DNA from: an uncultured Pirellulales bacterium
GTDB lineage: Bacteria; Planctomycetota; Phycisphaerae; Sedimentisphaerales; Anaerobacaceae
Length of the DNA stretch: 64,000 nt
NCBI GenBank assembly: GCA_964354535.1
Contig: CAYHAJ010000294.1
Location: forward strand, 5,067 to 69,066
Direction: 5' to 3'
Below are positions 10,901 to 63,933 of the stretch, in pieces; positions within the stretch are counted from its first letter, which is position 1, and every line of letters starts with the position of its first letter. The position numbers were made by a program, and so were the translations under genes. Under the pieces are notes generated by a model, which was not told the origin of the DNA, ran no database searches, and worked only from the letters and a program-made list of their open reading frames with translations.

Positions 10901-11181
10901 GCACCGGGGCGGTCAAGGGCAATTGGGCTGTCGGCGGGCTGGTGGGGGAGAATGACCGAGGGACGGTGACCCAGTCTTTCTGGGACATCCAGACCTCAGG
11001 CCAGGCGAAGAGTGCCGCCGGCACCGGCAAGACCACGGCCCAGATGCAGACGGCCAAGACCTTCCTGGATGCCGGCTGGGACTTTGTGGGCGAGACGAAA
11101 AACGGCACGGAAGACCTCTGGTGGATTCGCGAAGGGAAGGACTATCCGAGGCTGTGGTGGGAGCTGATTCCCGGGAACTGA
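7930..11181 (+). CDS. Secreted GLUG-motif repeat protein, three-module architecture
   Basis: The product has a signal peptide (ACLFALPAHA). Three colinear modules each begin GG[TM]GEPNDPY, followed by FDGNGH.ISHLTI.G.SYLGLFG..GAEV.NLGVVD. Runs of VGGLVG...CYSTG repeats follow; the third module has about 13. Confidence 0.85.
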   Translation: MLEARTSQIVRSISVLIAACLFALPAHAKYSGGTGEPNDPYQIATAADLIALGNEPNDYDKHFILTADIDLDPKLPGRKVFDKAVIAPDTDPTKEYFQGTPFTGVFDGDGHRVSHLTITGKDYLGLFGFGQWYSGAEVKDLGVVDVNINGSGGYVGGLVGLNGGSVTQCYSTGMVTGKDYVGGLVGGITGRSVVATISNCYSTGVVTGKTRVGGLVGTSLNAAVTHCYSTGAVSGSSQVGGLVGYVESNWDTMVAGCFWNAETSGRGTSAGGTGLTTDKMQDIQTYQSARWDFVGQIEDGTSEIWQMPEGGGYPVLAIFSGYLPPQLRGLGTLEDPYLISNALELGAIVHYRSRACYRLAASIDLSGVRWGTAVIPSFAGTFDGNGLTISHLTITGESYLGLFGRLEWGAEVRNLGVVDVNINGSGGDVGGLVGWNEGAVTRCYSTGKVSGTSTVGGLIAMNLGRGATQCYSMVAVSGNGYVGGLVGLSGRTGGGGRIADSYSTGAVSGAKYVGGLVGSTHGEEVTRCYSTGAVMGTGLYVGGLVGDNDSPTQCFWDTQTSGQASSAGGTGKTTAEMHDPNTFRAAGWDFVGQADGPSDIWAMPEGGGYPILWWQLSPWPNLPTFSGGMGEPNDPYVISTAMDLSSIGCNPRLMRCHFKLVADLDLTGLRFYPMGDVDCPYGGVFDGNGHTISHLTIKGESYLGLFGMLGSGAEVKNLGVVDANLSGSDGYVGGLVGHNYSGSVTNCYSTGVISGTYRVGGLVGSNESGTVTQCYSTGTVSGNDNVGGLVGWNYEATVTDCHSTGTVSSKDSVGGLVGWVYSGDVTQSYSTGAVIGTGGAVGGLVGSNSGTLTDCYSTGAVSGGSSVGGLVGSNSGTLTDCDSTGAVGGDSQVGGLVGSNSGTLTDCYSTGTVTGTGWSVGGLVGKNNRGTLTECYSTAAVRGYASVGGLVGRNDGGTVTQCYSTSAVNGVGGVGGLVGENYRGTVSQCYSTGAVKGNWAVGGLVGENDRGTVTQSFWDIQTSGQAKSAAGTGKTTAQMQTAKTFLDAGWDFVGETKNGTEDLWWIREGKDYPRLWWELIPGN
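10450..10683 (+). repeat. Three near-identical in-frame 78-bp tandem repeats inside the GLUG gene
   Basis: The units are 10450-10527, 10528-10605 and 10606-10683. Each begins gt[gc]ggcggactggtggggtccaactc[ag]ggcactctgaccga[ct]tgc and encodes VGGLVGSNSGTLTDC.STG. Only a few substitutions separate the units. Confidence 0.9.
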
Positions 11182-44276: not shown

Positions 44277-44682
44277 TTCGCAACCAGAGATTTCCTCACC
44301 ACAGAGTCACAGAGGCCACGGAGATCAGACGACGGAAGGCTGGAGACGCCAGGCCATAGGCCGTAGCCGTGCCCTTCTCACCCTTCACACCCTGCGACTC
44401 TTCCCACCTGCGGCGGAGCCGCTGCCCTGCCCTGCGAGTTCTGCCGGAATGTCGTACCCTGCCGACATGCGAATCCTCCCGAATCACAAGTAACCACCTG
44501 CACTTACACCGGCGCCAGCCCGGCGTTCACCTCCCCGCACCATCATCCCCGACCGTCTCCTCTCTGTTCTCTGGAGAAAGTACCTGCCACCGTCCGATTC
44601 CCTAAGTGCAGCAATCTTCTGAGTCTACCGGCAGATCCAAGAAGACGACGCCGACAGAATCTCGATTCGCCGCCGAAAACAC

Positions 44683-44713
44683 TTGACATGCCTCCGCGAT
44701 AGGCAAATATAAT
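44683..44713 (+). promoter_or_regulatory. Possible promoter at the left edge of the AT-rich island
   Basis: TTGACA (44683-44688) is followed by AATATAAT. This reads as a -10 AATATA at 17 nt or TATAAT at 19 nt. It lies about 115 nt upstream of ATG 44827. Confidence 0.3.
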
Positions 44714-44826
44714 GCGGCGGTGGACCAGCATTGGCAGGCCCCAAGAAGAACGGGGGATATGAGACCACTACATAACAGTATCTCCCAGTCGCATTTTGGC
44801 AAACAGGCTGTGGGACATGGCTTGCG

Positions 44827-46341
44827 ATGAACGGAGGCGAGATGAACATATTCGACATTACGCAATACAGCGAAGGAATACCACCAGAAGACGTGCGCGC
44901 CGAAATCGCGAAGAACTCAGGGCGGATTGTCATTGAATATCCGATGACTTTCATCCATTCGTCCAACTCGCACCTTGACATCATCCACAACTATCTTGAA
45001 GCTTCGTATGTTGCCGAATCACTTGGGAGGTATGCGGCAAGTATTACCACAGAGGAGATTTCGCGGTTTCCGGCCTGTCCCATCTGCCGCTACAACATTG
45101 TGGTCGCAGCGCCTGAGCCTTTCATCGAGAAGCTGACGCAGCTATCGCTTGCCCTCTACGAAGACCAGGAAGACGATGGCGTCGTTCTGGATTACGCAAC
45201 GGAGTTGGATGACTATGCTGATTCTCTGGACGAAAGGCAGTTCCTTTGCCCTGACCTGGTGGATGGGTATTATGCGAATCTTGTTGGCGCGGCTGACTGC
45301 GAACTGGACTCGGAATGTGAAGGGTACTTGGCCACTGAGTACAAGAAGCATCCGGAGAGAGAATACGGCTTCTGGAAAAGCGCATATTCGAATACGATTG
45401 GGGCGTGCTTCTACGTGTCGCGTGAGTGTTGGGTGGTCCCTGTCGGGATAGATATCTGCAAACTACTATCCGTGTACTCCGGACTCTCCTCAGCAGAGAC
45501 ATACGAGGAGGCAACTCTGTTCAGCGTTGACCACATAAGCTATCTAGTCCACAAACACGCGGTGGTCTATTTCCCTTTCGGTCCGCTCCTGCACGCAAAG
45601 AATTTCGTGGGTGAGGTCCTAAGCTCCGATACAGATGAGGGGGTGAGTGCGAGCTTGCTCACATATTCTCCAACGGTAGATGAGGTTGAAGAACTGCGTG
45701 GCATCAACCTGCGTGCGACAACTACGCCGCCGAAGTATCTGCTGTCGCGATCCGGTTTTTCGATAATAGTTGAAGATGGACAGTACCGATATATCTTCTT
45801 TCCCGAACAGATAGAAGGCAATAGGAAGACTGCTCTCTACGAGGCAGTCTCGGCGATCTTTACCTGCGTTGCAGAGTGTGCCGGTGTTACGAGGAGCGTG
45901 GACTTGTCTTGGGATGGTTTTGACGATGAGAAATTCGAGAGTCTGTGCTATGACATAATCTACCATGATCCACGATTTGATAATCAGACTATCCGCAAAA
46001 TGGGCAAGTCGCGAAGCAGAGATGGAGGACGCGACATCGTGGTCTACACAAGAGGGCGACTGGGTTCTCCCAAGAAGATGTATATCTTTCAATGCAAGTT
46101 CACTCAAGTCAACTCATCTCTAACCGCGCACAAGGTTCAGAACATATCCGATACCATAGTCCAATATAACGCCCACGGGTATGGCGTAATGACACCCGTA
46201 GTAATTGATTCCGGTTTGTACGATAGAATCGACGATATATGCGATAGATACAAAGTCGAGAATACCAACTGGTCTGTTCTGGAGATCGAAAGGTTCATTG
46301 CACGACATCCGAATCTGAAGGAGAGGTACTTCACGCAGTGA
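44827..46341 (+). CDS. Hypothetical protein with C-terminal Mrr-like (PD-(D/E)xK) restriction-endonuclease domain
   Basis: The C-terminal 160 aa or so read FESLCYDIIYHDPRF..IRKMGKSRSRDGGRDIVVYT...YIFQCKF...V..ISD.I..YNAHGYGVMTP. This fits the Mrr_cat pattern (FE..., DGG.D, QCK). The N-terminal 340 aa or so were not recognised. The DNA is AT-richer. An alternative start is ATG 44842, after GGAGG. Confidence 0.75.
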   Translation: MNGGEMNIFDITQYSEGIPPEDVRAEIAKNSGRIVIEYPMTFIHSSNSHLDIIHNYLEASYVAESLGRYAASITTEEISRFPACPICRYNIVVAAPEPFIEKLTQLSLALYEDQEDDGVVLDYATELDDYADSLDERQFLCPDLVDGYYANLVGAADCELDSECEGYLATEYKKHPEREYGFWKSAYSNTIGACFYVSRECWVVPVGIDICKLLSVYSGLSSAETYEEATLFSVDHISYLVHKHAVVYFPFGPLLHAKNFVGEVLSSDTDEGVSASLLTYSPTVDEVEELRGINLRATTTPPKYLLSRSGFSIIVEDGQYRYIFFPEQIEGNRKTALYEAVSAIFTCVAECAGVTRSVDLSWDGFDDEKFESLCYDIIYHDPRFDNQTIRKMGKSRSRDGGRDIVVYTRGRLGSPKKMYIFQCKFTQVNSSLTAHKVQNISDTIVQYNAHGYGVMTPVVIDSGLYDRIDDICDRYKVENTNWSVLEIERFIARHPNLKERYFTQ

Positions 46342-46604
46342 GACTGGTCAGAGGAGCGAAAGGTGAGCCGAGATGCCTTCAAATCGAAATACGAATCATG
46401 AAGAGACAGAAACGAATCAGGCGACGGATGTCTTCCGGGCGCTCGGAACAGCCATATCCAAGGCCTGCTCCCTTTGCCGTCCTGATGTATTCCAGGCAAC
46501 GTAGGGAAAGAAAAAGCCTACAATTTCTTGCTTGTCCACCAATGATGGGCGCGTTATCCTGTGGTCTGTCGTTTGATCTTTCTTGAGTTTCTGGGAGCGC
46601 GCCA

Positions 46605-47312
46605 ATGAACATATCGGGCTTGACCGACCGTCAACTAGCCGCAATGATAGACCACACAGCATTGAAGCCGCAGGCACAGGAGTCACACATCATAAAACTA
46701 TGTGAGGAAGCGCGCACTCACGGATTTGGGGCGGTCTGTCTCGCGCCCACGTGGGTAGAGGTCGCAAAGAGAGAGCTCATGGGAACGGACGTCAAGATCG
46801 CGTCGGTGGTTGGTTTCCCGCACGGCAATACGCTTTCTCAAGTGAAAGCCTTTGAAGTCGAGCGTGCAATGCAGCTTGGGGCCACTGAATTCGACATGGT
46901 TATCAACATCGGTGCCCTGAAGGACCGAAATGAGAGAATTGTCGCCGCAGACATAGAGGCAGTTGTGAAGGTGGCCCACACAGACTCGGGTCTTGTCAAA
47001 GTGATCATTGAAGCTGCACTTCTGTCAGAGGTGGAGAAGCAACTTGCTTGTCGGCTGGCGAAGAAGGCCGGGGCCGATTTTGTAAAGACATCGACCGGCT
47101 TTGCAGGAGAAGGAAAGGGAGCTACCGTGGAAGATGTGCGACTTATGCGTGCCTCCGTTGGCGGAATGGTCGGAGTGAAAGCTGCAGGGGGCATCAAGGA
47201 TTGCGCGACGGCCCTGAGGATGATAGAGGCGGGAGCGACTCGCTTGGGTTGTTCGAGTTCAATACAGATACTTGAGCAATTCAGGTCTGGTCATTGTCCT
47301 GAGTCGGATTGA
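46605..47312 (+). CDS. deoC: Deoxyribose-phosphate aldolase
   Basis: IDHTALKP, GFGAVCL.P.WV, VVGFPHG and EFDMVINIG are present, along with the Lys-bearing strands LVKVIIEAALL and ADFVKTSTGF, then VKAAGGI. This is the short class-I DERA layout. Confidence 0.9.
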   Translation: MNISGLTDRQLAAMIDHTALKPQAQESHIIKLCEEARTHGFGAVCLAPTWVEVAKRELMGTDVKIASVVGFPHGNTLSQVKAFEVERAMQLGATEFDMVINIGALKDRNERIVAADIEAVVKVAHTDSGLVKVIIEAALLSEVEKQLACRLAKKAGADFVKTSTGFAGEGKGATVEDVRLMRASVGGMVGVKAAGGIKDCATALRMIEAGATRLGCSSSIQILEQFRSGHCPESD

Positions 47313-47342
47313 CGTTGTGCGAGTGGTTAAGGAGAGAGACGA

Positions 47343-47864
47343 ATGTCATCGGAGAATCAACGCGAAACTGCCTCAGAAGATTTGCGCCCCAAGATGTTGC
47401 ATGAGCGGCTTGATTACGCCTGGAAGTGGTTCGACTACCATGCCAAGCAGAGGGTGTCGATGTTCAACTTCTTCTTGATTGCGAGCGGCTTGTTCGCCAC
47501 CGCTTACGTGAACGCACTGAAGGAAGGCGAGAATGTCTTGGGCGCGGTCCTTTCGTTTCTTGGGGCCATTATCGCGGCTGCGTTTGTGGTCTTGGATTTG
47601 CGCAACGCGACGCTTGTATATCTAGGGGAAGATGTTTTGAGGAGGCTAGAGAGAGAAGATCTCTTCGCCGGTTTCAGTGGTTTGACAGAGGAACTCAAAG
47701 AAGCACCCTACGAGGGGATTATATACAGAGACGCCATTGAGGGTCGAACATGCTGTAAGTGTTGGACGAGGCACAAGTACTGGTTGCGCTTGGTCGAGGC
47801 CCTTGTGGCTATAGGTTTTGCGCTGGGCGGGGTCTACGCGCTCGTCAAGCACTTCGACCCTTGA
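47343..47864 (+). CDS. Hypothetical three-helix membrane protein, translationally close-coupled to deoC
   Basis: AAGGAG lies 7 nt before ATG 47343, which is 30 nt after the deoC stop. The product contains LDYAWKWFDYHAKQRVSMFNFFLIASGLFATAYV, a second TM helix and a C-terminal TM helix (LVEALVAIGFALGGVYALV). Confidence 0.7.
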   Translation: MSSENQRETASEDLRPKMLHERLDYAWKWFDYHAKQRVSMFNFFLIASGLFATAYVNALKEGENVLGAVLSFLGAIIAAAFVVLDLRNATLVYLGEDVLRRLEREDLFAGFSGLTEELKEAPYEGIIYRDAIEGRTCCKCWTRHKYWLRLVEALVAIGFALGGVYALVKHFDP

Positions 47865-47934
47865 GCGGAGTGCCGGGAATCCGACGGTGTCAGGTAGTTC
47901 AGCGAACTGTGCGGCCGGTGGTGATTGTATCGCC

Positions 47935-48052
47935 GCCGGTAGTCAGTAGTTTGCAGAAACTACGACTCCCCCGTCTCCCCCGAATCCGAGAAGCCTTCCG
48001 GCGGGCGAAAGACGGCAGCGGCGAAGCCGCAGAGTGGCGGCTGGGCCGGCAG
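47935..48052 (+). repeat. About 120-nt repeat, family 5, copy 1
   Basis: gccggtagtcagtagtt..gaaac.acga.tc.c...tctccc.cgaatccg.gaagccttccggcgg...gcggcg.agccgcag.gtggc.ggctg aligns along its whole length with 50736-50862 in the same orientation. Confidence 0.75.
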
Positions 48053-48175
48053 TGACAAGCGATAGGTGACAAGTGACAAATCAGAGCGACTGCGCCACAG
48101 GTGTGAAGGGATGCTGGCCGGGCCGGCAGTGACAAGCGAGAAGTGACAGGTGACAAGCAAGCAAGGTGACAATTG

Positions 48176-48227
48176 GCAGTCCTCGCCCCGGATTGGAGTC
48201 CGGGGCGACAAGGTTGCCAGTTCTCAG
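48176..48227 (+). repeat. Hairpin repeat, family 4 (CTCGCCCCGGAT..G..TCCGGGG.GACA.GGTTGCCAGTT)
   Basis: ggcagtcctcgccccggattggagtccggggcgacaaggttgccagttctcag. A second copy lies at 63211-63263 (gacagttctcgccccggatcgccgtccggggtgacatggttgccagttgaaaac). Confidence 0.75.
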
Positions 48228-48265
48228 CCCCCAATGGAGGAATCCGGGGCTTTCCGGCACAGGAT

Positions 48266-49435
48266 CTATCGACCTATCACATTGACCACGCCGGTGGCGG
48301 GTAGTTCCGTGCTCGACTTCTGCTGGCCAATGAGCTGTGACACCAGCGACAGGACGTGCATTGATTGGTCGTGGCAGTTGGCGTCCGTGGAGTCAGGTTG
48401 TCGGGGGATGACATACCGGGTTCCCTCATACTCCACCGACACTGCAGGGGCGACGCCCTTACCGTCGATCTCCACGTGAAACAACGAAGCAAGAGACCCG
48501 GGTAGTCTATCGGCGCTATAGACCTCAGGCACTTTTGGGCACCTCCCTTCGGCGGCCGCCAGCATTTCAACTCGGACTATCTCACCCAGGTAATAGAGGA
48601 TGGCCTCAGGAGAACGGATGTAGACCCTCATTTTCGGCGACTTGGAGTCGCTCGGATATGTCTCTCTTCTGCCGTCTTTGGTTCGCTGAAAGATATACGT
48701 CGGCTGCGTGGAGCATACGTCCCATTTGTCTCCATCCTTCTCACTTTTCTTGAGTGCAAGCCCGGCCTTCTGGACTTCGATCAGGTCTTTCAGTCGCGCT
48801 GCCTGCTTCGCGTCCACGGTTCCGACCCTTCTGGACTCGCGATTGGGGTCTGGTACTATGTCCCACTTGGCCGTGCGTATCTCATCCTGAAACCGACGGA
48901 ATTCTCCCCAATCTTCGGGGTAGTTCTCGTACGGCTTCTCCCCTGGGGAGTTGATGTCGATCCGGCGGATAAACAGGTGCAGTAGCAGGTCCTTCGACCA
49001 CCCCTGGCTCCAATAGTACTCAATTGTGGCCATGGACACCGGCTTCATCACCCCGCACATGAACTCCTTGGTGTCCAGAACCGCCATATCGAATAGGGGA
49101 CTGCTCGTGTAGGTGGCGCTGGGAGTAACGGAATAGGAGCCATTCGCACCAGATCCAATCGCGCCGAAGGGAACGCTCAGACCCCCTGTCCCGAATGCAT
49201 AGGTGATGTTTCCGGTCAGCTTGCCGAACGTAGTGAAATACATGGGGCGACGCTGGCTGGCCCGGATGATGTTGAGAAGCAGCATTCGATTGCCCGTTGC
49301 TTCCGCCACCATGTTATACTCCGTCGTCCTCTGGATCATATTCTCTTTGGGGACCAGGGGATAGCATCCGGCCAGTAGGCCGACGAGACTGGCCCCGGAC
49401 AAGACTGTCAGTGCAATCGATCGATTCAGTTTCAT
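48266..49435 (-). CDS. Hypothetical lipoprotein (389 aa)
   Basis: ATG 49435 gives MKLNRSIALTVLSGASLVGLLAGC (lipobox). The DNA is AT-richer. No family recognised. Confidence 0.75.
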   Translation of the reverse strand: MKLNRSIALTVLSGASLVGLLAGCYPLVPKENMIQRTTEYNMVAEATGNRMLLLNIIRASQRRPMYFTTFGKLTGNITYAFGTGGLSVPFGAIGSGANGSYSVTPSATYTSSPLFDMAVLDTKEFMCGVMKPVSMATIEYYWSQGWSKDLLLHLFIRRIDINSPGEKPYENYPEDWGEFRRFQDEIRTAKWDIVPDPNRESRRVGTVDAKQAARLKDLIEVQKAGLALKKSEKDGDKWDVCSTQPTYIFQRTKDGRRETYPSDSKSPKMRVYIRSPEAILYYLGEIVRVEMLAAAEGRCPKVPEVYSADRLPGSLASLFHVEIDGKGVAPAVSVEYEGTRYVIPRQPDSTDANCHDQSMHVLSLVSQLIGQQKSSTELPATGVVNVIGR

Positions 49436-49513
49436 GGCTTGGTCTCCTGAAGTTGTGGGGCAGACCCGGCGGCACGCCCGCCCTGCCCCGTATGGTTTCC
49501 GCACAGAGTTTGC

Positions 49514-49888
49514 TTAAGCATGCGCCTTATTCCACAAGAGAATCACGCCAAATACTACGGTCAGTGCCATCCCCGACGCGAAGAAGAGAACCTGGCCCAG
49601 GGCAGGCACACGTATGTTCGACGCATAGATCGACGACGGCGAAAGCTCCGATTCTCTGCCCAGGGAGCCTGTAAGCGCCAACAGTCCGGCGACACCGGAC
49701 AGTAGTGCGAGCAGAAACAGTACCCAAGAGGTACCAAGGGCAATGTAGGCAACGATGGGAAGGTCTTTGATGATGTCTTTGAGAAAAGTGACTTCGAGCG
49801 TCAAAACGCCGGTGCTCAGAGTCATCATTTGCTTGAGAGCGTCCGTCGTGGCTTGAAACGCCTGCTTTGTTTGATCGTCCATACGCAC
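49514..49888 (-). CDS. Hypothetical small membrane protein (3-4 TM)
   Basis: GTG 49888 or ATG 49882 follows directly after the upstream gene's stop (49890). Hydrophobic helices include IVAYIALGTSWVLFLLALLSGVAGLLAL and LGQVLFFASGMALTVVFGVILLW. Confidence 0.6.
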   Translation of the reverse strand: MRMDDQTKQAFQATTDALKQMMTLSTGVLTLEVTFLKDIIKDLPIVAYIALGTSWVLFLLALLSGVAGLLALTGSLGRESELSPSSIYASNIRVPALGQVLFFASGMALTVVFGVILLWNKAHA

Positions 49889-49889
49889 C

Positions 49890-50192
49890 TCAACAGAACG
49901 GGAATATTGGGCAGAGTCTTGATAAGGCGTTGCTCACACTCAGTCCCATAATTCCATGTATTTTTGCCTGTTCCTCGAACTCGCTGAGCAAGTAATCAAG
50001 ATTGCGCTGAACTTCGCCAAGGCAGTCCGGATCAGAGGCGACCTTCCCTGCCGCCATCCAGATTAGAGGATCCAGTTCTTTCAACCAGTCTGCAACTGGG
50101 GAGGAGATTCCCTGAGATGCAAGGGGCAGACGAATTGCGGTAGCATGGACTTTGGCGTCGAGCATCCGGTATATGTCTTCCTTGTCTGGCAC
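49890..50192 (-). CDS. Hypothetical small soluble protein (100 aa), first gene of a three-gene operon
   Basis: ATG 50192. The helical, acidic sequence starts MPDKEDIYRMLDAKVH. No family recognised. Confidence 0.5.
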   Translation of the reverse strand: MPDKEDIYRMLDAKVHATAIRLPLASQGISSPVADWLKELDPLIWMAAGKVASDPDCLGEVQRNLDYLLSEFEEQAKIHGIMGLSVSNALSRLCPIFPFC

Positions 50193-54805: not shown

Positions 54806-54876
54806 AGCGGGTGGCGGGGATCGAACCCGCGTAGCCAGCTTGGAAGGCTGGTGCTTTACCACTAAGCAACACCCGC
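54806..54876 (-). tRNA. tRNA-Gly (anticodon UCC)
   Basis: The minus strand reads GCGGGTG TT GCTT AGTGGTA AAGC A CCAGC CTTCCAA GCTGG CTAC GCGGG TTCGATC CCCGC CACCCGC T. It is 71 nt with no encoded CCA. Confidence 0.95.
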
Positions 54877-54958: not shown

Positions 54959-56254
54959 ATGTCAAGGAAAATGAAAATCGCGGAGCGGGCGGCGGCGGCG
55001 AAGGCGGCCTCGATTCGGCTGGGGGCCGTCAAGACCGAGGCGAAGAACGACGCTCTGACCGAGATCGCGAAGGCGTTGCAGGAGCATGCGGCCCAGATCT
55101 TTGAGGCGAATGAGCGGGACGTGGAAGCGGCCCAGACGAGCGGTCTGGCCGCCCCGCTGCTCAAGCGGCTGAGGTTCGGCGAAGGCAAGCTCGCCGACGT
55201 CTGTGCCGGCATCCACAGCCTGATCAAGCTGCCCGACCCGGTGGGTAAGACGCTCTCCGCCATCGAAATGGATGAGGGCCTGGAGCTTTACCGCGTCAGT
55301 TGCCCAATCGGCGTGATCGGCGTGGTCTTCGAATCCCGCCCGGACGCCCTGGTGCAGATCTCGACCCTGTGCCTCAAGAGCGGCAACGCCGTCCTGCTCA
55401 AAGGCGGCAGCGAAGCGGCCCACACGAACCAGATCCTCGCCGAGATCATCGCCCAGGCCAGCGAGGCGGCCGGCACGCCCGCCGGCTGGATTCACCTGCT
55501 CGAAACCCGCCAGGATGTCGCCGAGATGCTCGCCCTCGACGAGCAGATCAACCTCGTCATCCCGCGCGGCTCGAACGAGTTCGTCCGCTACATCATGAAC
55601 CACACGAACATCCCGGTCCTCGGCCACGCCGATGGCATCTGCCACGTCTACGTGGACGCCGACGCCGACCTCGACATGGCGGTGCGGGTCACCGTCGATT
55701 CCAAGTGCCAGTACGTCGCCGTCTGCAACGCCGCCGAGACGCTGCTGGTGGATGAAAAGATCGCCCCCGCCTTCCTGCCCCAGGTCCAGCCAGCCCTGGA
55801 GGCCTGCCACTGCCGGCTCAAGGGCTGCGAGCGGACGCGGGCGATCATCCCCATCGAGCCCACCACCGAGGAGGACTGGGCCACCGAGTACCTCGACTAC
55901 ATCCTCTCGATCCGGGTCGTGGACGGCCTGGACGCCGCGATCGACCACATCAACCGCTACGGCTCCGGCCACACCGACACCATCGTCACCGCCGACCGCG
56001 AGAAGGCCGAGCGCTTCATGAACCTCGTCGATTCCGCCGACGTCTTCTGGAATGCCAGCACCCGTTTCAGCGACGGCTACCGCTACGGCTTAGGCGCCGA
56101 AGTCGGCATCAGCACCAACAAAATCCACACCAGAGGCCCCGTCGGCTTGGACGGCTTAGTCATCTATAAGTGGAAGCTCCTCGGCAAAGGCCAGATCGTC
56201 GCCGATTACACCGGTCCCAACGCCAGGAAATTTACCCATAAGAAACTGCGCTAA
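54959..56254 (+). CDS. proA: Gamma-glutamyl phosphate reductase
   Basis: The 431-aa product is colinear with ProA (ANERDV, PIGVIGVVFESRPDA, LKGGSEA, VIPRGSNEFV, GHADGICHVYVD, CNAAETLLV, GSGHTD.IVT, FWNASTRFSDG..YG.GAEVGIST.K.H.RGP). Confidence 0.95.
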   Translation: MSRKMKIAERAAAAKAASIRLGAVKTEAKNDALTEIAKALQEHAAQIFEANERDVEAAQTSGLAAPLLKRLRFGEGKLADVCAGIHSLIKLPDPVGKTLSAIEMDEGLELYRVSCPIGVIGVVFESRPDALVQISTLCLKSGNAVLLKGGSEAAHTNQILAEIIAQASEAAGTPAGWIHLLETRQDVAEMLALDEQINLVIPRGSNEFVRYIMNHTNIPVLGHADGICHVYVDADADLDMAVRVTVDSKCQYVAVCNAAETLLVDEKIAPAFLPQVQPALEACHCRLKGCERTRAIIPIEPTTEEDWATEYLDYILSIRVVDGLDAAIDHINRYGSGHTDTIVTADREKAERFMNLVDSADVFWNASTRFSDGYRYGLGAEVGISTNKIHTRGPVGLDGLVIYKWKLLGKGQIVADYTGPNARKFTHKKLR

Positions 56255-56456
56255 CGGAACCGCAGATGAACGCAGATTCACGCAGATACTGGTATGTCAT
56301 TGCGAGCGAAGCGCGGCAATCTGCCGCTTTCTTCAACCACGGGGGGCACGGAGGTTCTGTAACCGCGAAATACGCCAAAGACGCGAACAAGGACATGGCG
56401 AGGTGTAAGGCGAGGTTTACCGTACCGATTCTCTTGTGCAATCGAGGTTAGTATCG

Positions 56457-56747
56457 ATGGGCATATCGGAAATCATCGGCGATAAGCGCGACGCGATCCT
56501 GGCCCTGGCGGCCAAGTACGGGGCGTCGAACGTAAGGGTCTTTGGATCAGTCGCGGAAGGCGAGGCGACGGAGGCCAGCGACGTGGATTTCCTCGTGGAT
56601 CTGGAGCCGGACCGCAGCCTGTTCGATCTCGGCGGCCTGCTCATGGACCTGCAGGAACTGCTCAGCCGCAGAGTGGATGTGGTCACCGAACCAGCATTGC
56701 ACTGGTATATCCGCGAACGGGTGTTGCACCAAGCGAGAGCGTTATGA
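56457..56747 (+). CDS. mntA: MntA-type nucleotidyltransferase antitoxin
   Basis: ATG 56457. The product has [36 protein letters not shown], the minimal NTase GS...D.D motif. It overlaps the next gene by 4 nt. Confidence 0.85.
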
Positions 56748-57085
56748 AGGACGACAAGCTATATCTGATCCATATCGGCGAATGCATCGATCGCGTCGAG
56801 TCCTACACACAGGGACTGACGAAGGAAGCCTTCCTGGCTTCCTCGCTCGTGCAGGACGCCGTGATCCGGAATCTGCAGGTCTTGGCCGAGTCCACGCAGC
56901 GTCTGTCCGCCCGTGCCAAGGAGAGCCAGCCCCGAATCGACTGGCACAGGATTGCCGGCTTTCGCAATATCCTCGTCCACGACTACCTCGGAGTCGATCT
57001 CGCGAAGGTCTGGAATATCGTGCAAAACGACCTACCGTTTCTGAAGGAAGTCGTAGGCGAGATGTTGGGAGGGAACGTTTCATGA
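56744..57085 (+). CDS. hepT: HepT-type HEPN (DUF86) toxin
   Basis: The product has [12 protein letters not shown] and the R-x4-H motif ([10 protein letters not shown]). Confidence 0.85.
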
Positions 57086-57150
57086 ACCTCGTCGATTCCG
57101 CCGACGTCTTCTGGAACGCCAGGGAGTTTACCCACAAGAAGCTGCGATGA
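57079..57150 (+). pseudogene. proA: Internally deleted duplicate of the proA 3-prime end
   Basis: 57079-57122 equals proA 56015-56058 (ttcatgaacctcgtcgattccgccgacgtcttctggaa[tc]gccag) with 1 mismatch. 57121-57150 (agggagtttacccacaagaagctgcgatga) matches the proA tail 56224-56254. The translation is [22 protein letters not shown]. Confidence 0.7.
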
Positions 57151-57554
57151 TGGTAGTATCCATGAGCAGGTGCAAGATAACAGACAAGGAGAGACGGCCA
57201 TTGACTTCAAGTCGGACCCGTCCGAAGAAGCGAGCCGCGCCGAAGGATGAGCCGATCCGCAAGATGGTGCGGCGGATCGTCAGGCGGTTTGCCCCGGACA
57301 AGATCATCCTGTTCGGCTCCTACGCGCGCGGAGAGGCGGGCCCTGACAGCGATGTGGACCTGCTCATCGTCATGCCCGTCTCCGGCTCGATCCGTCAGAT
57401 GGCGGTGGAAATCGGGGTCGCTCTGCACGACATCCGCGTGCCCAAGGACGTGATCGTCACCACGCCGGAGGAATTTGAATGGCGAAAGGACACGATCGGG
57501 ACCATCGAATGGCCGGCCTGGCGGGAAGGAACGGTCTTGTATGCCAAATCCTGA
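57147..57554 (+). CDS. Nucleotidyltransferase-domain (MNT-type) protein; start uncertain
   Basis: IILFGSYARGEAGPDSDVDLLIVMP is the NTP_transf_2 motif. There is a basic N-terminal extension. The stop overlaps the remnant HEPN start region. Confidence 0.75.
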   Translation: MMVVSMSRCKITDKERRPLTSSRTRPKKRAAPKDEPIRKMVRRIVRRFAPDKIILFGSYARGEAGPDSDVDLLIVMPVSGSIRQMAVEIGVALHDIRVPKDVIVTTPEEFEWRKDTIGTIEWPAWREGTVLYAKS

Positions 57555-57672
57555 CCACGCCGCCGTCGTCGCGCGCGAATGGATCGCCAAGGCCGACAAC
57601 GACCTGAAGAACGCGACCCCCTCTCCATCCGTGCGTTGGTCTTCCATTTCATCTTGGTTCGGGTATAATTGA
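57541..57672 (+). pseudogene. Truncated HEPN-domain partner of the second MNT
   Basis: MPNPDHAAVVAREWIAKADNDLKNA resembles the first helix of HEPN (PF05168-type) proteins. It then runs into unrelated sequence and stops after 43 codons; full-length partners are about 120-130 aa. Confidence 0.5.
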
Positions 57673-58245: not shown

Positions 58246-58908
58246 TCACACATGGCACACACTCCAAATATTGTGCGCGTGTGCCAACACACATAACAGG
58301 TTGTTTGCAGCCTTAACTGGCTCCCTTTTCAGACGCTGAAACACAAACGTTGCGAGTGATCGCCCCGCGTGGCGGCGGGCCTTTTTGCGGAAATTCCGTA
58401 CCCCAGACCTGGCGTCTCGCCCCGCAACCATTACATCAAGAGCTATGGAGCAGGATTCCTCAAATCCACAATAAGCTGTGCCTGACTTCCTATTGATGAC
58501 CATGTCAAAGGTTGTTCTGAAACCGAAAAAAGAAGACGCTGGCGGCCGTCCAGACGCACAGACGACGTGGTGGAAAAGCTTCTGTGAATGACAGCATATT
58601 GTGTAGACCCGTCGAGAGGCCAGTAGGGAGCAATTTGTCCGATCAACCATTGGGCGGCGCTTAGATCGTAACAGGGCACCGTCCTTGCGGCGGCCATGGC
58701 ACCAGAACGCAACCAACCATATGTCGCGATCTCCGGCCAAGACTGTTCGAATTGTGGCCTTATCGGCATCTGAACACAACGCGACATCAAAAACACCGGA
58801 CGATTTTCCGCATTTTTCGGCTGCCACGGTTGCCCATCTCGACAATTCTCTCTCGACTAGATCCCCTGTGTCACCTGCGCAGATAAAGACTACCAGTCTT
58901 CTCCCCAT
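58246..58908 (-). CDS. Hypothetical 220-aa protein with caspase/CHAT-like His...Cys arrangement
   Basis: ATG 58908 is preceded by GGAGG. A hydrophobic strand plus HG (IWLVAFWCHG, His71) comes first. About 30 aa later a second strand ends in Cys (RVYTICCHS, Cys105/106). An N-terminal strand reads RLVVFICAGD. The DNA is AT-richer. This is a fold-level guess only. Confidence 0.65.
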   Translation of the reverse strand: MGRRLVVFICAGDTGDLVERELSRWATVAAEKCGKSSGVFDVALCSDADKATIRTVLAGDRDIWLVAFWCHGRRKDGALLRSKRRPMVDRTNCSLLASRRVYTICCHSQKLFHHVVCASGRPPASSFFGFRTTFDMVINRKSGTAYCGFEESCSIALDVMVAGRDARSGVRNFRKKARRHAGRSLATFVFQRLKREPVKAANNLLCVLAHAHNIWSVCHV

Positions 58909-58970
58909 CTCGACGAACCTCCATCATGCACAATTCATAGTCAAAGAGGACCTTCGGCCCAACCATCGAC

Positions 58971-59663
58971 CTACTTCCTCTTGGGCTTTCGCTCTTTCCC
59001 TTTGGCTCTTTGCCCCATCCGGTTCTTTCTGACACGCTCTATTTCATGGAGGAAATCCTCTGGATCTAGAAAAAAACTGTACAGAAGCTTAGTGAACTGC
59101 TTCATGTATCTGCGGCCACGGCTCGTTTGTTGTGCTATGTCTCGGAGAAGTGCACCGCTGCGGATTTGCTTGGGACCGGCCATAAGAATCGCAGCTTCTT
59201 CATCCTCCTGTGGCTCCGCCTCTCGCAGAACCTCCACAACAGCATCATAAAGCAAACCTTCACCCTCCGAAAGAGCATTCCTGATGGCATCAAACAACAA
59301 ATTATGGTCTTTTCTGAAATCGGCTTTGTGGATGTACTTATCTAGTTTACCTTTGTTCACAGCTCTTGATATATCCTCCGTGTGAGCTTCGGACTCAAGC
59401 ATGATCTTGCGGACGCCTGGGTAGTACCTCTCCAAGTACTGCAACAGTTGCGAACCACGTTCTCCGGCGCCAAGGTTTTCATCAACAATAACAACTCGCG
59501 TGAGTAAATCTCGCGCACGACACTTGCGAAGGGTCTCCTTTGCTTGTTCGGCAGATTCAACCGCCTCAACTTTGTAGTCTGGGAACTCGTCTTCCAGCAG
59601 GGCCAATACGCCTGTGCGCACGCCAGGGTCGTCCTCCACAAACAATATGTGGTCCTGAATCAT
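58971..59663 (-). CDS. Response-regulator receiver (REC) protein with unrecognised C-terminal domain and basic tail
   Basis: ILFVEDD, VVIVDENL (phospho-acceptor Asp context), IMLES and DKYIHK are present. The C-terminal 110 aa or so have no evident HTH and end in KGKERKPKRK. The start overlaps the kinase stop (ATGA). Confidence 0.85.
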   Translation of the reverse strand: MIQDHILFVEDDPGVRTGVLALLEDEFPDYKVEAVESAEQAKETLRKCRARDLLTRVVIVDENLGAGERGSQLLQYLERYYPGVRKIMLESEAHTEDISRAVNKGKLDKYIHKADFRKDHNLLFDAIRNALSEGEGLLYDAVVEVLREAEPQEDEEAAILMAGPKQIRSGALLRDIAQQTSRGRRYMKQFTKLLYSFFLDPEDFLHEIERVRKNRMGQRAKGKERKPKRK

Positions 59664-62632
59664 GTCTCCACCCCCCTAGTTGGAATACTCACTTCCACAA
59701 TGGTTCCTTTCGTGCTCGACGAGACTATGCGAAGAGTTCCACGATGTGCCTCTACTATCGCTTCTACAATCTCCAGACCCCTGGAAGGATGAGGTGATCC
59801 CGAGCCTTGCGGCATCCCACGCAAGATTGACGACCGAATCCGGGCAGGAAGCCCTCCGCCCTCGTCTGCAATTCGTACAGCGACACGATTGGCTTTCTGC
59901 GTTACATCGACTGTGACGGTTCCTCGGCCAGCCATTGCCTCAACCGCATTCCTTATGAGGTTTATCCAAACAAGCCTAAGCGATTCAGCATACGAAGGTA
60001 TCTTCGGCAAATGCGGTATGGGTTTCTCTAGGCGAATGTTCGTACTCGACGGCACGCAACTGGCCACAATGCGAATACTAGCAGCGATACTCTCTCCCAA
60101 GTCCACAGGTGTCCTCATTGTCTGGTCTAGCACGGAGTTCAATAGCAGACCGGTCTCGATCCCGCTCAAGGTCTTTTCCGTCTCCGCTAGCTTCTGGAGT
60201 TTGGAGAGCAAGTTCGCAAGGTTCGTGAGGCGTTGCAGCACCATGGCATCCTCAGTCGTCTGTGCTGAGTCGATCAACCGCAAGAACTTTTTGTCAAGAC
60301 CGGATACAACGAAGAGCATGGCATCGTCCCAACTACACTTTAGTCTGTGTTTCTGGCCGATGGCTACAATCTTGTCGGCTAAGTCCCGCTCATCAGTAGA
60401 AGGTGCCACCGAGGGCAGTAGCACCGCATCAAACAGATGATCATGTATTTCCTGGGACAGCCGCCCAAAACCAGGGCCACCAGAAGATCCCAACTCAGAC
60501 TCACTGACCTTCAAGTACAATGGTAACCTGCTCTTCAGATACTCGATGGTCACATGCAGGGCAAGTTTGCAATTATTGAATTCGTGCGCTATGTGGCCCG
60601 CAAATTCAAGCGCGGCCTTCTTTCTCTGTGCTGCCACCAGAGACACGTACTCTTCGGCCGCATACATGCTCAACGAAGCATATCGTCCAAATGAGGCCAG
60701 GAGAGACATCTCATAAGCTGTTTCCGGCTGTGTGCTCCCAGAACCAATAGGGACTCCTTTGTCCACGGAGACCTTGCCGTAGACCTTACAACCCGTGCCG
60801 ATAGGAATGTCCACCCAGCTCCGTATCTTGTCCTTCCCAAGGTATTTTGCACATGCTGGTGGTACCTCATTGAGACAACAGGTTTGGTAGTTCCATTCAA
60901 CCTCCTCGGGAGGTATGTAGAATGTCTCGCGCTGAGAAGTGTCCACCACGAATCGGACTGGCCGCAACTTTCCGTCTTGTAGCGTAACGCGCGACGGGAC
61001 ATCCTCCGCAGGATCCAAGTGAAACCGTCTGAAGTCCTCGCCTTTGAAAGAATCGGCGGGGAAGCAGAACTTACCAACAAAACACGGGGAGTTGTAGCCA
61101 TATACTCGGTATCTCGAAAAACCCATTGCCTTGAGTCCAAGCCCAACATGTTCCCAAAGATGATCGGCTATTTCCTGAGGCGATCGGACATGTTTGCTCA
61201 ATCTCTCTTGATACACTTGAGACAGTATGTTCAGGGTATCAGCCATCCATCGCAGCATGCTTTCACGCTGCGTAACGTATCGAACGATCTCCACGCCTTG
61301 GGGTTCTTCCTCATCAATGTCGATACGTCCGGCGGATATCTCAACGTAAGAAGGCCCCTCAGTGCCAGGGGCCCCGTACTTCCACAGAGCCTGTTGGACA
61401 GATTCTCCGGTGTCAATAGAACGAAGCGTGTAACATGCGGTACACGGAGAACTCTTACCACGCTCAAACTGCTCATAACAGAACTGCCCCTCACGGGCAT
61501 CGGGAAACCTCTGCCTCTTCGCGCTATTCATCTTCAGGATACGACCTTCTTTGTCTACAATAAGGAGTTCGTCCGGTATGGCATCTATGACTTTCTCCAA
61601 GTAGGTTCGCTCCTTAACTAGTGTTGATCTCGCCTGGGCATTCGCAAATATGGGGGCCATCTGTGCTCCGAGGACGCAAAGCGCCCGAACCGCCAGTGTG
61701 TCGAAAGCCTCAGACATTCGCGAATCTACGCTCAGAACTCCATAAAGATCCTCGCCATACAGACAAGGTACTGCAACATGCGAACGAGTCCCTCGAATAA
61801 GATCGCGATACTCGGCATCGACATCCGGCGGAGCTTTGCCTTCAGACTCCGCCCATGAGTGCAGCCATGCGTTCTTGTCAGCCTTGCTCAGAGTCAATCT
61901 GTGCTCTCTCGCTCGCCTTTTGGAGGCGTCACTGACGTCTCCGACAAAATCAGAGAACCTTAACGTGAGAGCGCTGCCATCTGTGCCTCCATGATGTGCA
62001 GTCCTGAAGTTTGCTGAGACGTTTGTGTCTTTTGAAAAAAGGGTATATCGGTCATCTCCGACGACATTCTCAAGGTATGCTCGCACGCCCTCTGAGAGGA
62101 CGACCTTCTCAAGGTATGCTCGCACGACCTCTGAGAGCGTGGGTGTCGCAGTCAGAAAATGGCGACGATGGAGAACCATGAATTGCAGAGGAATCAGCGC
62201 ATTGCGACCGTCACCAGGCCGGAAGCCTGTCGCTGCCACTTTTGCAATGCAACCTGCAAGATAAGCATCATATTCCCCCAAATGCTTCCCCTCTGGCGGC
62301 CACAAGGTCAACAGGCCGACAGGACGGTCATGAAGATAAAGGGGAACCATCACGGACCCAGGATCTAAAGATGCTGGCTCCTCCACCGCCGACCGAAGAC
62401 CACCGCACACAGGCTGCCCGTTGAATAAGACTCCGCGTAGGAATGCCTGGCGCTGCTTCGATTCGTCATCAACTCGCTCGCATTTGTATCCTCTCAAGAA
62501 ATGCCACTGAGTCCCAAACACCTCTAGTTTGCGGTCAAAGAGGTGCACGCAGTGCCTCTCAAAATCGCTGACTTCATTTGCGAGCAGAACAACCGCCTGA
62601 AGGTAGTCGGTGAGTACTCCGAATCTCTTCAT
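59660..62632 (-). CDS. Large cytoplasmic multi-sensor histidine kinase (GAF-like/PAS-like sensor regions + HisKA + HATPase_c)
   Basis: The H-box is FAGHIAHEFNN, the N-box LIRNAVEAM, G1 RIADEGGGL and G2 SRGLEIV. About 650 aa of N-terminal sensor region carry PAS-like (IDAIPDELLIVDKEGRILKMN) and GAF-like segments. No TM helices are evident. Confidence 0.9.
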   Translation of the reverse strand: MKRFGVLTDYLQAVVLLANEVSDFERHCVHLFDRKLEVFGTQWHFLRGYKCERVDDESKQRQAFLRGVLFNGQPVCGGLRSAVEEPASLDPGSVMVPLYLHDRPVGLLTLWPPEGKHLGEYDAYLAGCIAKVAATGFRPGDGRNALIPLQFMVLHRRHFLTATPTLSEVVRAYLEKVVLSEGVRAYLENVVGDDRYTLFSKDTNVSANFRTAHHGGTDGSALTLRFSDFVGDVSDASKRRAREHRLTLSKADKNAWLHSWAESEGKAPPDVDAEYRDLIRGTRSHVAVPCLYGEDLYGVLSVDSRMSEAFDTLAVRALCVLGAQMAPIFANAQARSTLVKERTYLEKVIDAIPDELLIVDKEGRILKMNSAKRQRFPDAREGQFCYEQFERGKSSPCTACYTLRSIDTGESVQQALWKYGAPGTEGPSYVEISAGRIDIDEEEPQGVEIVRYVTQRESMLRWMADTLNILSQVYQERLSKHVRSPQEIADHLWEHVGLGLKAMGFSRYRVYGYNSPCFVGKFCFPADSFKGEDFRRFHLDPAEDVPSRVTLQDGKLRPVRFVVDTSQRETFYIPPEEVEWNYQTCCLNEVPPACAKYLGKDKIRSWVDIPIGTGCKVYGKVSVDKGVPIGSGSTQPETAYEMSLLASFGRYASLSMYAAEEYVSLVAAQRKKAALEFAGHIAHEFNNCKLALHVTIEYLKSRLPLYLKVSESELGSSGGPGFGRLSQEIHDHLFDAVLLPSVAPSTDERDLADKIVAIGQKHRLKCSWDDAMLFVVSGLDKKFLRLIDSAQTTEDAMVLQRLTNLANLLSKLQKLAETEKTLSGIETGLLLNSVLDQTMRTPVDLGESIAASIRIVASCVPSSTNIRLEKPIPHLPKIPSYAESLRLVWINLIRNAVEAMAGRGTVTVDVTQKANRVAVRIADEGGGLPARIRSSILRGMPQGSGSPHPSRGLEIVEAIVEAHRGTLRIVSSSTKGTIVEVSIPTRGVET

Positions 62633-63210
62633 GATGACCGGTCCCCAGTTCGCACAGTCGTCAGCCTATACGAGCCCGTCAGCCGGCGGCAATTGCGCAA
62701 AATACACATTTTGGGATAGGCAAGACACGAAAGAGAACAAGACGCCTCACTGCATAGCACCCTCGCTGGACAACTCCTGTGCCCTCGGGACAAGCGAAAA
62801 TGCCCGCCAGTTCTTCCCTCAGGATGACTAATGCGTTGTCGCCATCGTAGGCTTTGTTCCGTGTAGCGAATTCTGCGAACACCACATTGCCAAGCTTCCC
62901 AGGCCACCATGCTCATCCGGCTCTCTCAGGCCTCAACCACTTTGTCACAGCTTCGTCCAAGATGCTCATCCACAGATAGTAGAGGTATTATGGCGGAAGT
63001 TGGCGGCAAGGGCAAGAAAAAAAGTGGGTTCGTGACTACTTTTTAGTGGACAGATGACGGTTGTCAATTCTCGGCCAGACCTTGCAGGCGCAGACCCCCC
63101 TTATATCCCCGTGTTCATACGTATGGCGATTCTCTCCGAGAGAATGTTGATGGAAAAAACGGTAGGCGGTAGGCTCTAGACGGTAGTCGGTTGACGAGCA
63201 GATCACAGTT

Positions 63211-63263: not shown

Positions 63264-63424
63264 CGCGTGTAAATCCCTGTCCAATAAGGCTTTATCTGCG
63301 GATGATAGGCGGTAGCCGGTAGCCTGTAGTCGGTGGTCGGTGGAAGACAGGGGTCGGGGATCAGGGGCCAGTTGCCGGCTCCCAATTCGCCTCGGCTCGG
63401 AGGCTCCGCGCGAGTTGGTTGTGG

Positions 63425-63676
63425 TCACGCGGGGACTTTGACCTTTTCGTAGAGGAACTCCGGAGCGAAATCGGCACCGTTCGGCCAAGTGATCGTATGC
63501 AGGTCAGGATGAACCTGGAAACTCCGGAAATAGGCTTCGTCTTTGAGAGGCTCGAAGACTTCGCCTTCCAGTTCGTTTTGCAGGTCGATATCCCCCTCGG
63601 CGCCATCCGCGAACTCGACGTGGATCGTGTAGTCCCTGACGTATTCAGCTTCGATCACTCGCGGCAGCATTTTCAT
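63425..63676 (-). CDS. DUF2442 domain protein
   Basis: ATG 63676 overlaps the upstream stop (TAATG). The product has PRVIEAEYVRDYTIHVEFADGAEGDIDL...L.DEAYF..F.V......I.WPNGADFAPEFLY. Confidence 0.8.
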   Translation of the reverse strand: MKMLPRVIEAEYVRDYTIHVEFADGAEGDIDLQNELEGEVFEPLKDEAYFRSFQVHPDLHTITWPNGADFAPEFLYEKVKVPA

Positions 63677-63933
63677 TACTCCAGCGGGTCGATGCTTTCC
63701 AGCGGACGCCTCGTTCTCGCCCGTTCCCAATCCTGCATCAACTCGTCTTTGTGAAGGTCCAGCCATTCCAGCACCAAACGAACAGCCCGTTTCGGAAACC
63801 GGCCGTGGATCACACCGGTTTCGATGTCCACCGTAACGTCATAGTCGCCGTACGTCGCATGGAAATGCGCCGGCGTGTGATCCCGGTAGAACATACCGAT
63901 TACTATCCCAAGGAATCGCGATATTTCCGGCAT
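63676..63933 (-). CDS. DUF4160 domain protein
   Basis: MPEISRFLGIVIGMFYRDHTPAHFHATYGDYDVTVDIETG is the canonical DUF4160 N-terminus. Confidence 0.85.
   Translation of the reverse strand: MPEISRFLGIVIGMFYRDHTPAHFHATYGDYDVTVDIETGVIHGRFPKRAVRLVLEWLDLHKDELMQDWERARTRRPLESIDPLE

Follow-up and report, generated by a model that had tools for sequence, protein, structure and literature searches.

What might a histidine kinase and a receiver protein do when the third gene of their operon encodes a small protein that resembles a caspase? This question is raised by a contig from an uncultured Pirellulales bacterium (GenBank assembly GCA_964354535.1, contig CAYHAJ010000294.1), of which we analyzed positions 5,067 to 69,066 of the forward strand. 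This stretch of 64,000 nucleotides (nt) is called the window, and all coordinates are given with respect to its first letter. A check of its open reading frames (ORFs) places three same-direction genes on the minus strand at 58246–62632, which encode a soluble multi-sensor histidine kinase of 990 amino acids (aa) (59660–62632), a response regulator of 230 aa with an atypical output (58971–59663), and a putative minimal clan CD cysteine protease of 220 aa with a caspase/CHAT-like fold (58246–58908). The stop codon of the kinase gene and the start codon of the receiver gene share an ATGA (59660–59663), an arrangement from which we read translational coupling of the two genes. The third gene follows after a gap of 62 nt and has a GGAGG ribosome-binding site (58918–58922) 9 nt before its ATG. 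A preliminary description of this DNA had reported the three co-directional genes, the ATGA junction, the gap, and the GGAGG, and all are present exactly as described.

The same description had proposed a phosphorelay-controlled protease module. The predicted fold, the residues of the dyad, and the co-occurrence of the three genes are in keeping with this proposal and support it in part, while control by phosphorylation and protease activity are what we infer. On balance, we lean slightly toward the reading that the protease is the enzymatic arm of a self-contained signaling cassette, in which the phosphorylated receiver controls it through protein-protein contact.

The Third Protein Is Predicted to Have a Caspase/Hemoglobinase Fold

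The 220-aa protein has no sequence match in Pfam (E ≤ 1), NCBIfam, PADLOC, or the PDB. A word-indexed homology search returned only the protein itself, or 3 proteins when the family profile served as the query. An exhaustive HMMER/phmmer search over 1.84 billion representatives identified 16 other proteins, including 15 credible relatives of 213–237 aa; P0017 (861 aa, 7 stretches), an unrelated repeat protein, was excluded from the family. In the resulting alignment of 17 sequences, which has a mean column identity of 36%, the only invariant columns besides Met1 are His71, Gly72, and Cys106, and Asp16, Gly70, Gly77, Ser108, Leu111, and Phe149 are near-invariant. Conservation of His71 and of either Cys105 or Cys106 had been named beforehand as a check on the protease assignment. 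His71 and Cys106 pass it, whereas Cys105 is replaced by Tyr, Phe, Ser, or Ala in the relatives.

AlphaFold2 applied to the single sequence was uninformative (mean predicted local distance difference test score, pLDDT, of 38.9). With the family alignment as input, the model reached a pLDDT of 94.1 and a predicted template modeling (TM) score (pTM) of 0.90, with all five models at 92.8 or above. In this model, β1 (residues 4–10), α1 (17–36), β2 (40–46), α2 (50–58), and β3 (63–69) lead to His71-Gly72, which is followed by a small hairpin, a short helix (93–96), β4 (100–104), Cys106, a helix (108–118), β5 (126–130), and three long helices. The order of these elements is that of caspases through strand 4. 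The caspase-hemoglobinase order that had been read from the sequence is thus recovered in a high-confidence model: strand 63–69 ends at His71-Gly72, the DGALL turn lies between this motif and strand 100–104, and Cys106 comes directly after that strand. The candidate catalytic residues are encoded on the minus strand at 58693–58698 (His71-Gly72) and 58591–58593 (Cys106), and both assignments rest on invariance in the 17 sequences together with the model topology.

A Foldseek search of the PDB with this model, a test that the preliminary description had called for, returned clan CD proteins for all of the top 50 matches (E = 1.9e-4 to 1.2e-2; TM-score TMq 0.40–0.56). The best match is the SAVED-CHAT protease (PDB code 8tl0; E = 1.9e-4, TMq 0.55); next come caspases 3, 7, 9, and 11, CED-3, gingipain RgpB, and MALT1. 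In BFVD, an uncharacterized myovirus protein ranks first, and the matches include a pithovirus caspase (E = 0.059). When the family was aligned by hhalign with caspase-3 (the sequence used is 100% identical to PDB 2j30_A), one local alignment was obtained that is not significant alone (Prob 0.8%). This weak alignment sets GHG..DGALL of the family on SHG..EGIIF of caspase-3, and thereby His71-Gly72 on His121-Gly122, the catalytic His motif.

The model therefore displays two defining features of clan CD, an α/β/α sandwich and a His-Gly at the C-terminal end of strand 3. The invariant Cys106 stands directly after the modeled strand 100–104, although the profile alignment did not place it. Taken together, the model and the fold search support a caspase/hemoglobinase (clan CD) fold for the 220-aa protein, and with the conservation of the two residues they point to an intact candidate dyad of His71 and Cys106; the protein may be proteolytic.

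At the level of sequence, the family stands apart from those described. A PDB profile search with the family gave no match at E ≤ 10. The hidden Markov model (HMM) searches gave no match to CHAT (PF12770), Peptidase_C14 (PF00656), or Peptidase_C25 at the gathering score, and the 17 members searched against Pfam at E ≤ 10 gave a single weak match, to Peptidase_C25 (E = 0.11). Pfam and PHROGs scans of all family members returned nothing consistent. These results support the view that the 220-aa protein founds a new, very small clan CD family that belongs to no described family. With the output domain of the receiver described below, the cassette defines two sequence families that are absent from Pfam and NCBIfam: a minimal clan CD protease and a receiver output domain with a basic tail.

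The near-invariant Asp16 lies immediately ahead of helix 1, roughly at the position where, in caspases, the Arg that binds the P1 residue of the substrate is found. Many bacterial clan CD enzymes cut after Arg or Lys, among them orthocaspases (PMC6426788) and the type IV Thoeris caspase (doi 10.1101/2024.10.24.620036). By analogy with this habit, the position of Asp16 offers a lead toward an Arg/Lys-type substrate preference of the putative protease.

The Three Genes Are Conserved as a Unit

Co-occurrence of the three genes had been set as a further check, and they are found together in every locus with enough sequence, save for one solo copy considered below. The kinase-receiver-protease order is kept in the window and in the related loci L001, L002, L003–L008, L009, L019, and L020; the end of the receiver gene is visible upstream of the protease gene in L010, L011, L018, and L022, and the basic tail of the receiver in L013. 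Viewed by family member, complete trios accompany P0006 (six places shown), P0008, and P0013, while the contig of P0009 begins inside the 3′ end of the kinase gene. Partial receiver genes lie upstream of P0007 and P0015, and receiver C-terminal ends upstream of P0010. For the most divergent member, P0020, only the Lys/Arg tail is visible upstream, which is weaker evidence. Adjacency of receiver and protease, counted whether the receiver gene or no more than its basic-tail end is visible, is found in 11 of the 12 informative lineages, and the kinase lies upstream of the receiver wherever the contig sequence reaches that far. Both receiver homologues that were found by search lie within such trios, and the homology of all three components across loci was confirmed by tblastn. 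The 4-nt overlap between the kinase and receiver genes recurs in L001, L002, L003, and L009, and the gap between the receiver and protease genes ranges from 2 to 204 nt across lineages.

Conservation of three proteins as a unit in independent metagenomic loci is, as judged from sequence, more than chance. The flanking genes differ in every lineage, with no conserved fourth gene. Two sets of candidate fourth components, the 281-aa ORFs on the upstream side in L001 and L002 and the 38-aa ORFs on the downstream side in L005 and L010, proved unrelated and were rejected. No relative of the cassette is present in GTDB genomes (one per species), where the single match is a 29-residue receiver fragment in a metagenome-assembled genome of Taylorbacteria that is no relative, and none is present in plasmids, phages, or IMG/VR viral contigs. 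Scanning metagenomes with the receiver alignment contributed just two further real loci, one already known and the other a short duplicate. By its gene order and distribution, the cassette is thus a rare, self-contained, and genetically locked unit of kinase/receiver and protease.

The composition and neighborhood of the cassette raise the possibility of a role in defense, which the preliminary description had offered in the form of a suicide or defense effector. According to this explanation, the kinase would sense infection, and the activated protease would break down proteins of the cell, in the manner of the type IV Thoeris or SAVED-CHAT/PCaspase systems. In its favor, SAVED-CHAT, the best structural match, is itself a defense protease. 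The description of an AT-richer segment beside toxin-antitoxin (TA) modules also proved accurate: the trio has a GC content of 52.2% against 60.9% in the remaining window, and it is flanked by two TA-like pairs, MNT/HepT (56436–57085) and DUF4160/DUF2442 (63425–63933). The GC content of the cassette is below that of the flanks in L002, L003, L004, and L020 as well, though not in comparison with the left flank of L001, and a weak transposase-like ORF lies near the cassette in L001; both this ORF and the TA-like pairs are consistent with horizontal mobility. However, none of the three proteins has a PADLOC match (PADLOC-DB 2.0, E ≤ 1), the adjacency to TA modules is specific to this window, and the cassette is absent from plasmids, phages, and viral contigs. 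In the other loci, the cassette adjoins genes for housekeeping or sugar metabolism, with no defense-island context. In some related loci they include N_methyl/SBP_bac_10, ThuA, and 3-keto-disaccharide hydrolase genes, neighbors which we take to be typical of Planctomycetota. The defense effector was not borne out by these observations, and we regard an anti-phage or suicide function as very unlikely.

A Soluble Multi-Sensor Kinase and a Receiver with an Atypical Output

The kinase shares 37–41% sequence identity over ~980 aa with the kinases of six related loci (tblastn). An N-terminal GAF-like domain (residues 9–126; 62255–62608) is matched by Pfam GAF_2 at E = 6.5e-5, below the gathering score, and a second GAF domain (residues ~255–326; 61655–61870) by Pfam GAF at E = 4.8e-6, with 27.6 bits against a cutoff of 22.4 bits. 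A PAS-like domain follows (residues ~345–460; 61253–61600), with a weak Pfam PAS_4 match at 350–456. The PAS-like region is the best-conserved part of the protein, with 19 of 50 residues invariant between positions 351 and 400 among six kinases. Three cysteines of this domain, Cys385, Cys397, and Cys400 (C-x11-C-x2-C; 61433–61483), are invariant in all six family kinases, which suggests a metal or redox-sensing site.

The phospho-acceptor His683 (codon at 60584–60586) lies in an H-box, IAHEFNN, whose His-Glu is invariant in the six kinases. The catalytic ATP-binding (CA) domain (residues 883–985; 59678–59986; Pfam HATPase_c, E = 1.5e-14) contains the N, G1, and G2 boxes; the N-box reads WINLIRNAVEA and the G1 box DEGGGL, and all three boxes are conserved in the six family kinases (WINLxxNA, DxGxGL). 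The Pfam HisKA model has no match in the protein, and the H-box histidine with the three further boxes identifies it as a two-component histidine kinase. No transmembrane segment is predicted: no window of 19 residues exceeds a Kyte-Doolittle mean of 1.57, a maximum located within a GAF helix, and the kinase is therefore regarded as soluble. Both the complete set of boxes and the lack of a transmembrane segment agree with what had been noted earlier. Residues ~700–850 (~60080–60530), which connect the H-box helix to the ATPase domain, retain their length with only 3 of 150 positions invariant. Such a near-unconserved segment of ~150 aa is unusual for a connection between the dimerization and histidine phosphotransfer (DHp) domain and the CA domain.

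The receiver domain occupies residues 6–114 of the second protein (59322–59648; Pfam Response_reg, E = 7.2e-9), whose homologues, at 40–56% identity, directly follow the kinase in related loci. The acceptor pocket of Glu10-Asp11, Asp61 (codon at 59481–59483), and Lys113 (59325–59327) is invariant in seven receiver homologues, as expected of a response regulator; the usual Thr/Ser after strand 4 of the receiver domain is not conserved. A PDB profile search matches the receiver part only, with RpfG-type and VraR receiver domains as the best matches. The C-terminal ~90 aa have no Pfam or PDB profile match at E ≤ 0.05. They comprise a domain without known relative (residues ~137–210; 59034–59255), conserved in 7 homologues, and a Lys/Arg-rich tail (residues 211–230; 58974–59033). 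Lys and Arg together account for 10–15 of the C-terminal 25 residues in each of the 7 homologues, while the body of the receiver is mostly acidic. In the short contigs L010, L011, and L013, too, such a tail precedes the protease-like gene. In this respect, too, the protein is as it had been described, with an Asp pocket, a C-terminal part that resembles no known DNA-binding output, and a poly-basic tail.

A purely transcriptional role of the receiver is the main rival to control by contact. Here, the helical C-terminal domain and the histone-H1-like tail would bind DNA, the phosphorelay would regulate transcription, that of its own operon included, and the protease would be a co-expressed product whose activity is not directly controlled by phosphorylation. 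Short gaps between the receiver and protease genes suggest co-transcription, as does the lack of a terminator above chance (promoter and terminator scans of the cassette gave signals no better than chance). The tail is strongly basic in all homologues. Furthermore, NCBIfam matches to NarL/NarP-type regulators cover the receiver and linker, and one homologue has been annotated by the Joint Genome Institute (JGI) as a NarL/FixJ-family regulator. However, the NarL/NarP matches end at residue ~157–161 and are far below their cutoffs, and the GerE/LuxR-type helix-turn-helix (HTH) that would mark a NarL/FixJ regulator was not found. Searches with the isolated C-terminal domains found no HTH or other DNA-binding family in Pfam even at E ≤ 10, itself a weak negative, and the HTH region of VraR aligns with the domain at a negative score (−1.0). 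Nor is there a credible shared operator upstream of the kinase gene in five loci, again a weak negative; the best 9-mer, CAGATTTTG, occurs in 5 of 5 upstream regions, is equaled by 12 of 150 shuffles, and has inconsistent positions. We judge transcriptional wiring alone to be rather unlikely.

The conserved, disordered basic tail beside a clan CD protease also fits a feedback role, in which the protease would act on the pathway itself and not on external targets. By trimming the Lys/Arg tail of the receiver, or by cutting the kinase within the 700–850 linker, it would reset or lock the signal. The preference of many bacterial clan CD enzymes for Arg/Lys would suit such a tail, which is present even upstream of the most divergent family member, and the unconserved ~150-aa segment of the kinase would offer a second site. 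On the other hand, a P1 preference for Arg or Lys is supposed by analogy, the protease too is a basic protein, and one family member has no adjacent receiver gene. Feedback of this kind seems improbable to us and, like the role in defense, is less likely than the transcriptional alternative.

How the Receiver May Control the Protease

The reading that we prefer, control of the protease through contact with the phosphorylated receiver, can be set out as a sequence of steps. The cytoplasmic kinase would sense an intracellular cue through its two GAF domains, the PAS-like domain with its invariant cysteine trio, and one more conserved module. It would then autophosphorylate at His683, from which the phosphoryl group would pass to Asp61 of the receiver. 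This translationally coupled protein carries the family-specific helical domain and Lys/Arg tail in place of a recognizable DNA-binding or enzymatic output. The product of the third gene would be a stripped-down cysteine protease of caspase/CHAT fold with a His71/Cys106 dyad. The phosphorylated receiver would set the activity or the targets of this protease by contact through its novel C-terminal domain, or would present substrates to it, with the basic tail as a candidate tether or substrate. Post-translational control of this kind is the most economical reading because the receiver has no recognizable output and the protease is the only enzyme in the cassette. Which of the two controls the other, the substrate preference, and the action of receiver phosphorylation on protease activity rather than on transcription only are all parts of the scheme that we infer. 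A narrower version, in which the phosphorelay directly gates the minimal caspase-fold protease through a novel output domain of the receiver and the Lys/Arg tail acts as a tether, pseudo-substrate, or first substrate, is put forward tentatively, as a possibility that is more doubtful than plausible.

Several observations weigh against the contact model or against the assignments beneath it. The Foldseek E-values are modest (best 1.9e-4, with TM-scores of 0.4–0.56), the C-terminal three-helix part of the model differs from canonical caspases, and sequence profiles of the family do not reach CHAT or Peptidase_C14. Alignment with caspase-3 by hhalign in local, greedy, and global modes placed no credible Cys. 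No protease domain fused to a receiver or kinase is present among the matches of the homologue searches, so that physical contact gains no Rosetta-stone support. The solo copy mentioned above, P0014 (L012, 362–1039), is the only one seen; an unrelated ORF stands upstream in place of a receiver gene, and the copy adjoins a convergent DprA/SLOG-domain gene downstream. Only two sediment DNA metagenome runs share 6–7% of words, with no RNA run among those listed. Finally, the receiver tail and most of the family proteases are both basic (isoelectric point 9–10). With both of them basic, simple attraction by charge is not favored, and a common association with nucleic acid would fit as well.

Genomic Surroundings of the Cassette

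The window is chromosomal and carries the genes for trigger factor, proA, and GH42. An Rfam scan found two tRNAs only, none of them inside the cassette. A tRNA gene (54806–54876, minus strand) lies directly upstream of proA, close to where the lower-GC, TA-rich end of the window begins.

The 3′ end of proA (54959–56254) is partly duplicated ~0.9–1.06 kb downstream. Positions 57073–57122 match 56009–56058 at 94% identity, and 57115–57153 match 56219–56257 at 82% identity. Because these partial copies bracket the MNT/HepT pair, the arrangement looks like a cassette insertion at the proA 3′ end, with a decayed copy of the target left behind. A second nucleotidyltransferase gene (NTP_transf_2; 57147–57554), also among the genes that flank the trio, has no recognizable HEPN partner; a 65-aa ORF that overlaps it (57475–57672) has no Pfam match. 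The gene may represent a degraded second MNT/HEPN module. On the other side of the trio, a gene-poor region of ~800 nt that precedes the kinase gene contains an imperfect 34-nt direct repeat (63163–63196 and 63306–63339; 79% identity, 143 nt apart), which may be due to chance.

Farther away, a second lower-GC patch at ~44500–50000 (49–55% GC) includes long ORFs without Pfam matches (44827–46341 and 48266–49504) and may be another acquired segment. An ORF of 1083 aa at 7930–11181 encodes many GLUG motif repeats (Pfam Glug, E = 5e-71).

Comparison with Known Systems

Receiver proteins without a DNA-binding output are known to govern proteases by protein-protein contact, as RssB does with ClpXP in E. 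coli and CpdR in Caulobacter. The logic of the cassette would be analogous, with a private cysteine protease as the partner. RssB and CpdR steer a housekeeping AAA+ protease, ClpXP, that is encoded elsewhere, whereas the operon of the cassette would provide a dedicated cysteine protease that is independent of ATP, and the output domain of its receiver is unrelated to theirs.

Literature searches returned no description of a kinase-receiver-caspase cassette. To our knowledge, every signal-activated bacterial caspase-like protease described so far, as in Craspase, SAVED-CHAT/PCaspase, and type IV Thoeris, responds to RNA or to a nucleotide second messenger. The cassette suggests that bacterial enzymes of the caspase type can also be wired to a phosphorelay. 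If this is correct, a further class of input would be added to cyclic oligoadenylate, N7-cADPR, and target RNA, and the two most studied logics of prokaryotic signaling, the phosphorelay and regulated proteolysis, would be joined in one small and tractable cassette. The 220-aa protein would be among the smallest caspase-fold proteins and useful for defining the minimal requirements of the fold.

Compared with caspases, metacaspases, and orthocaspases (Peptidase_C14), the modeled 220-aa protein shares the order of elements through strand 4, with a candidate catalytic His after strand 3 and a candidate catalytic Cys after strand 4, and its GHG..DG resembles the SHG..EG of caspases. In contrast to them, it lacks a match to the Peptidase_C14 HMM and a p10-like region; strand 5 is followed by three long helices, and a helix comes directly after the Cys in place of the intersubunit linker.

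The type IV Thoeris TIR-caspase (doi 10.1101/2024.10.24.620036) and Craspase, composed of gRAMP and TPR-CHAT (PMC10028731), provide a precedent for a dedicated sensor that switches on a caspase-like protease of the same operon. Their inputs are N7-cADPR and target RNA, respectively, whereas the operon partner here is a histidine kinase/receiver pair and PADLOC finds no match.

The closest structural counterpart is SAVED-CHAT, a type III-B CRISPR-associated protease with a His/Cys dyad (H375/C422; doi 10.1101/2023.06.23.546230). Both proteins are predicted or known to combine the clan CD fold with such a dyad, and SAVED-CHAT is likewise activated by an upstream signaling step. The protein described here differs in being a stand-alone protein of 220 aa that lacks a SAVED sensor, a CRISPR context, and a match to Pfam CHAT, and in the spacing between His and Cys, which is 35 residues as opposed to 47. 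The activating step would also differ: SAVED-CHAT responds through filament formation driven by cyclic triadenylate (cA3), while the input to the minimal protease would be a phosphorelay.

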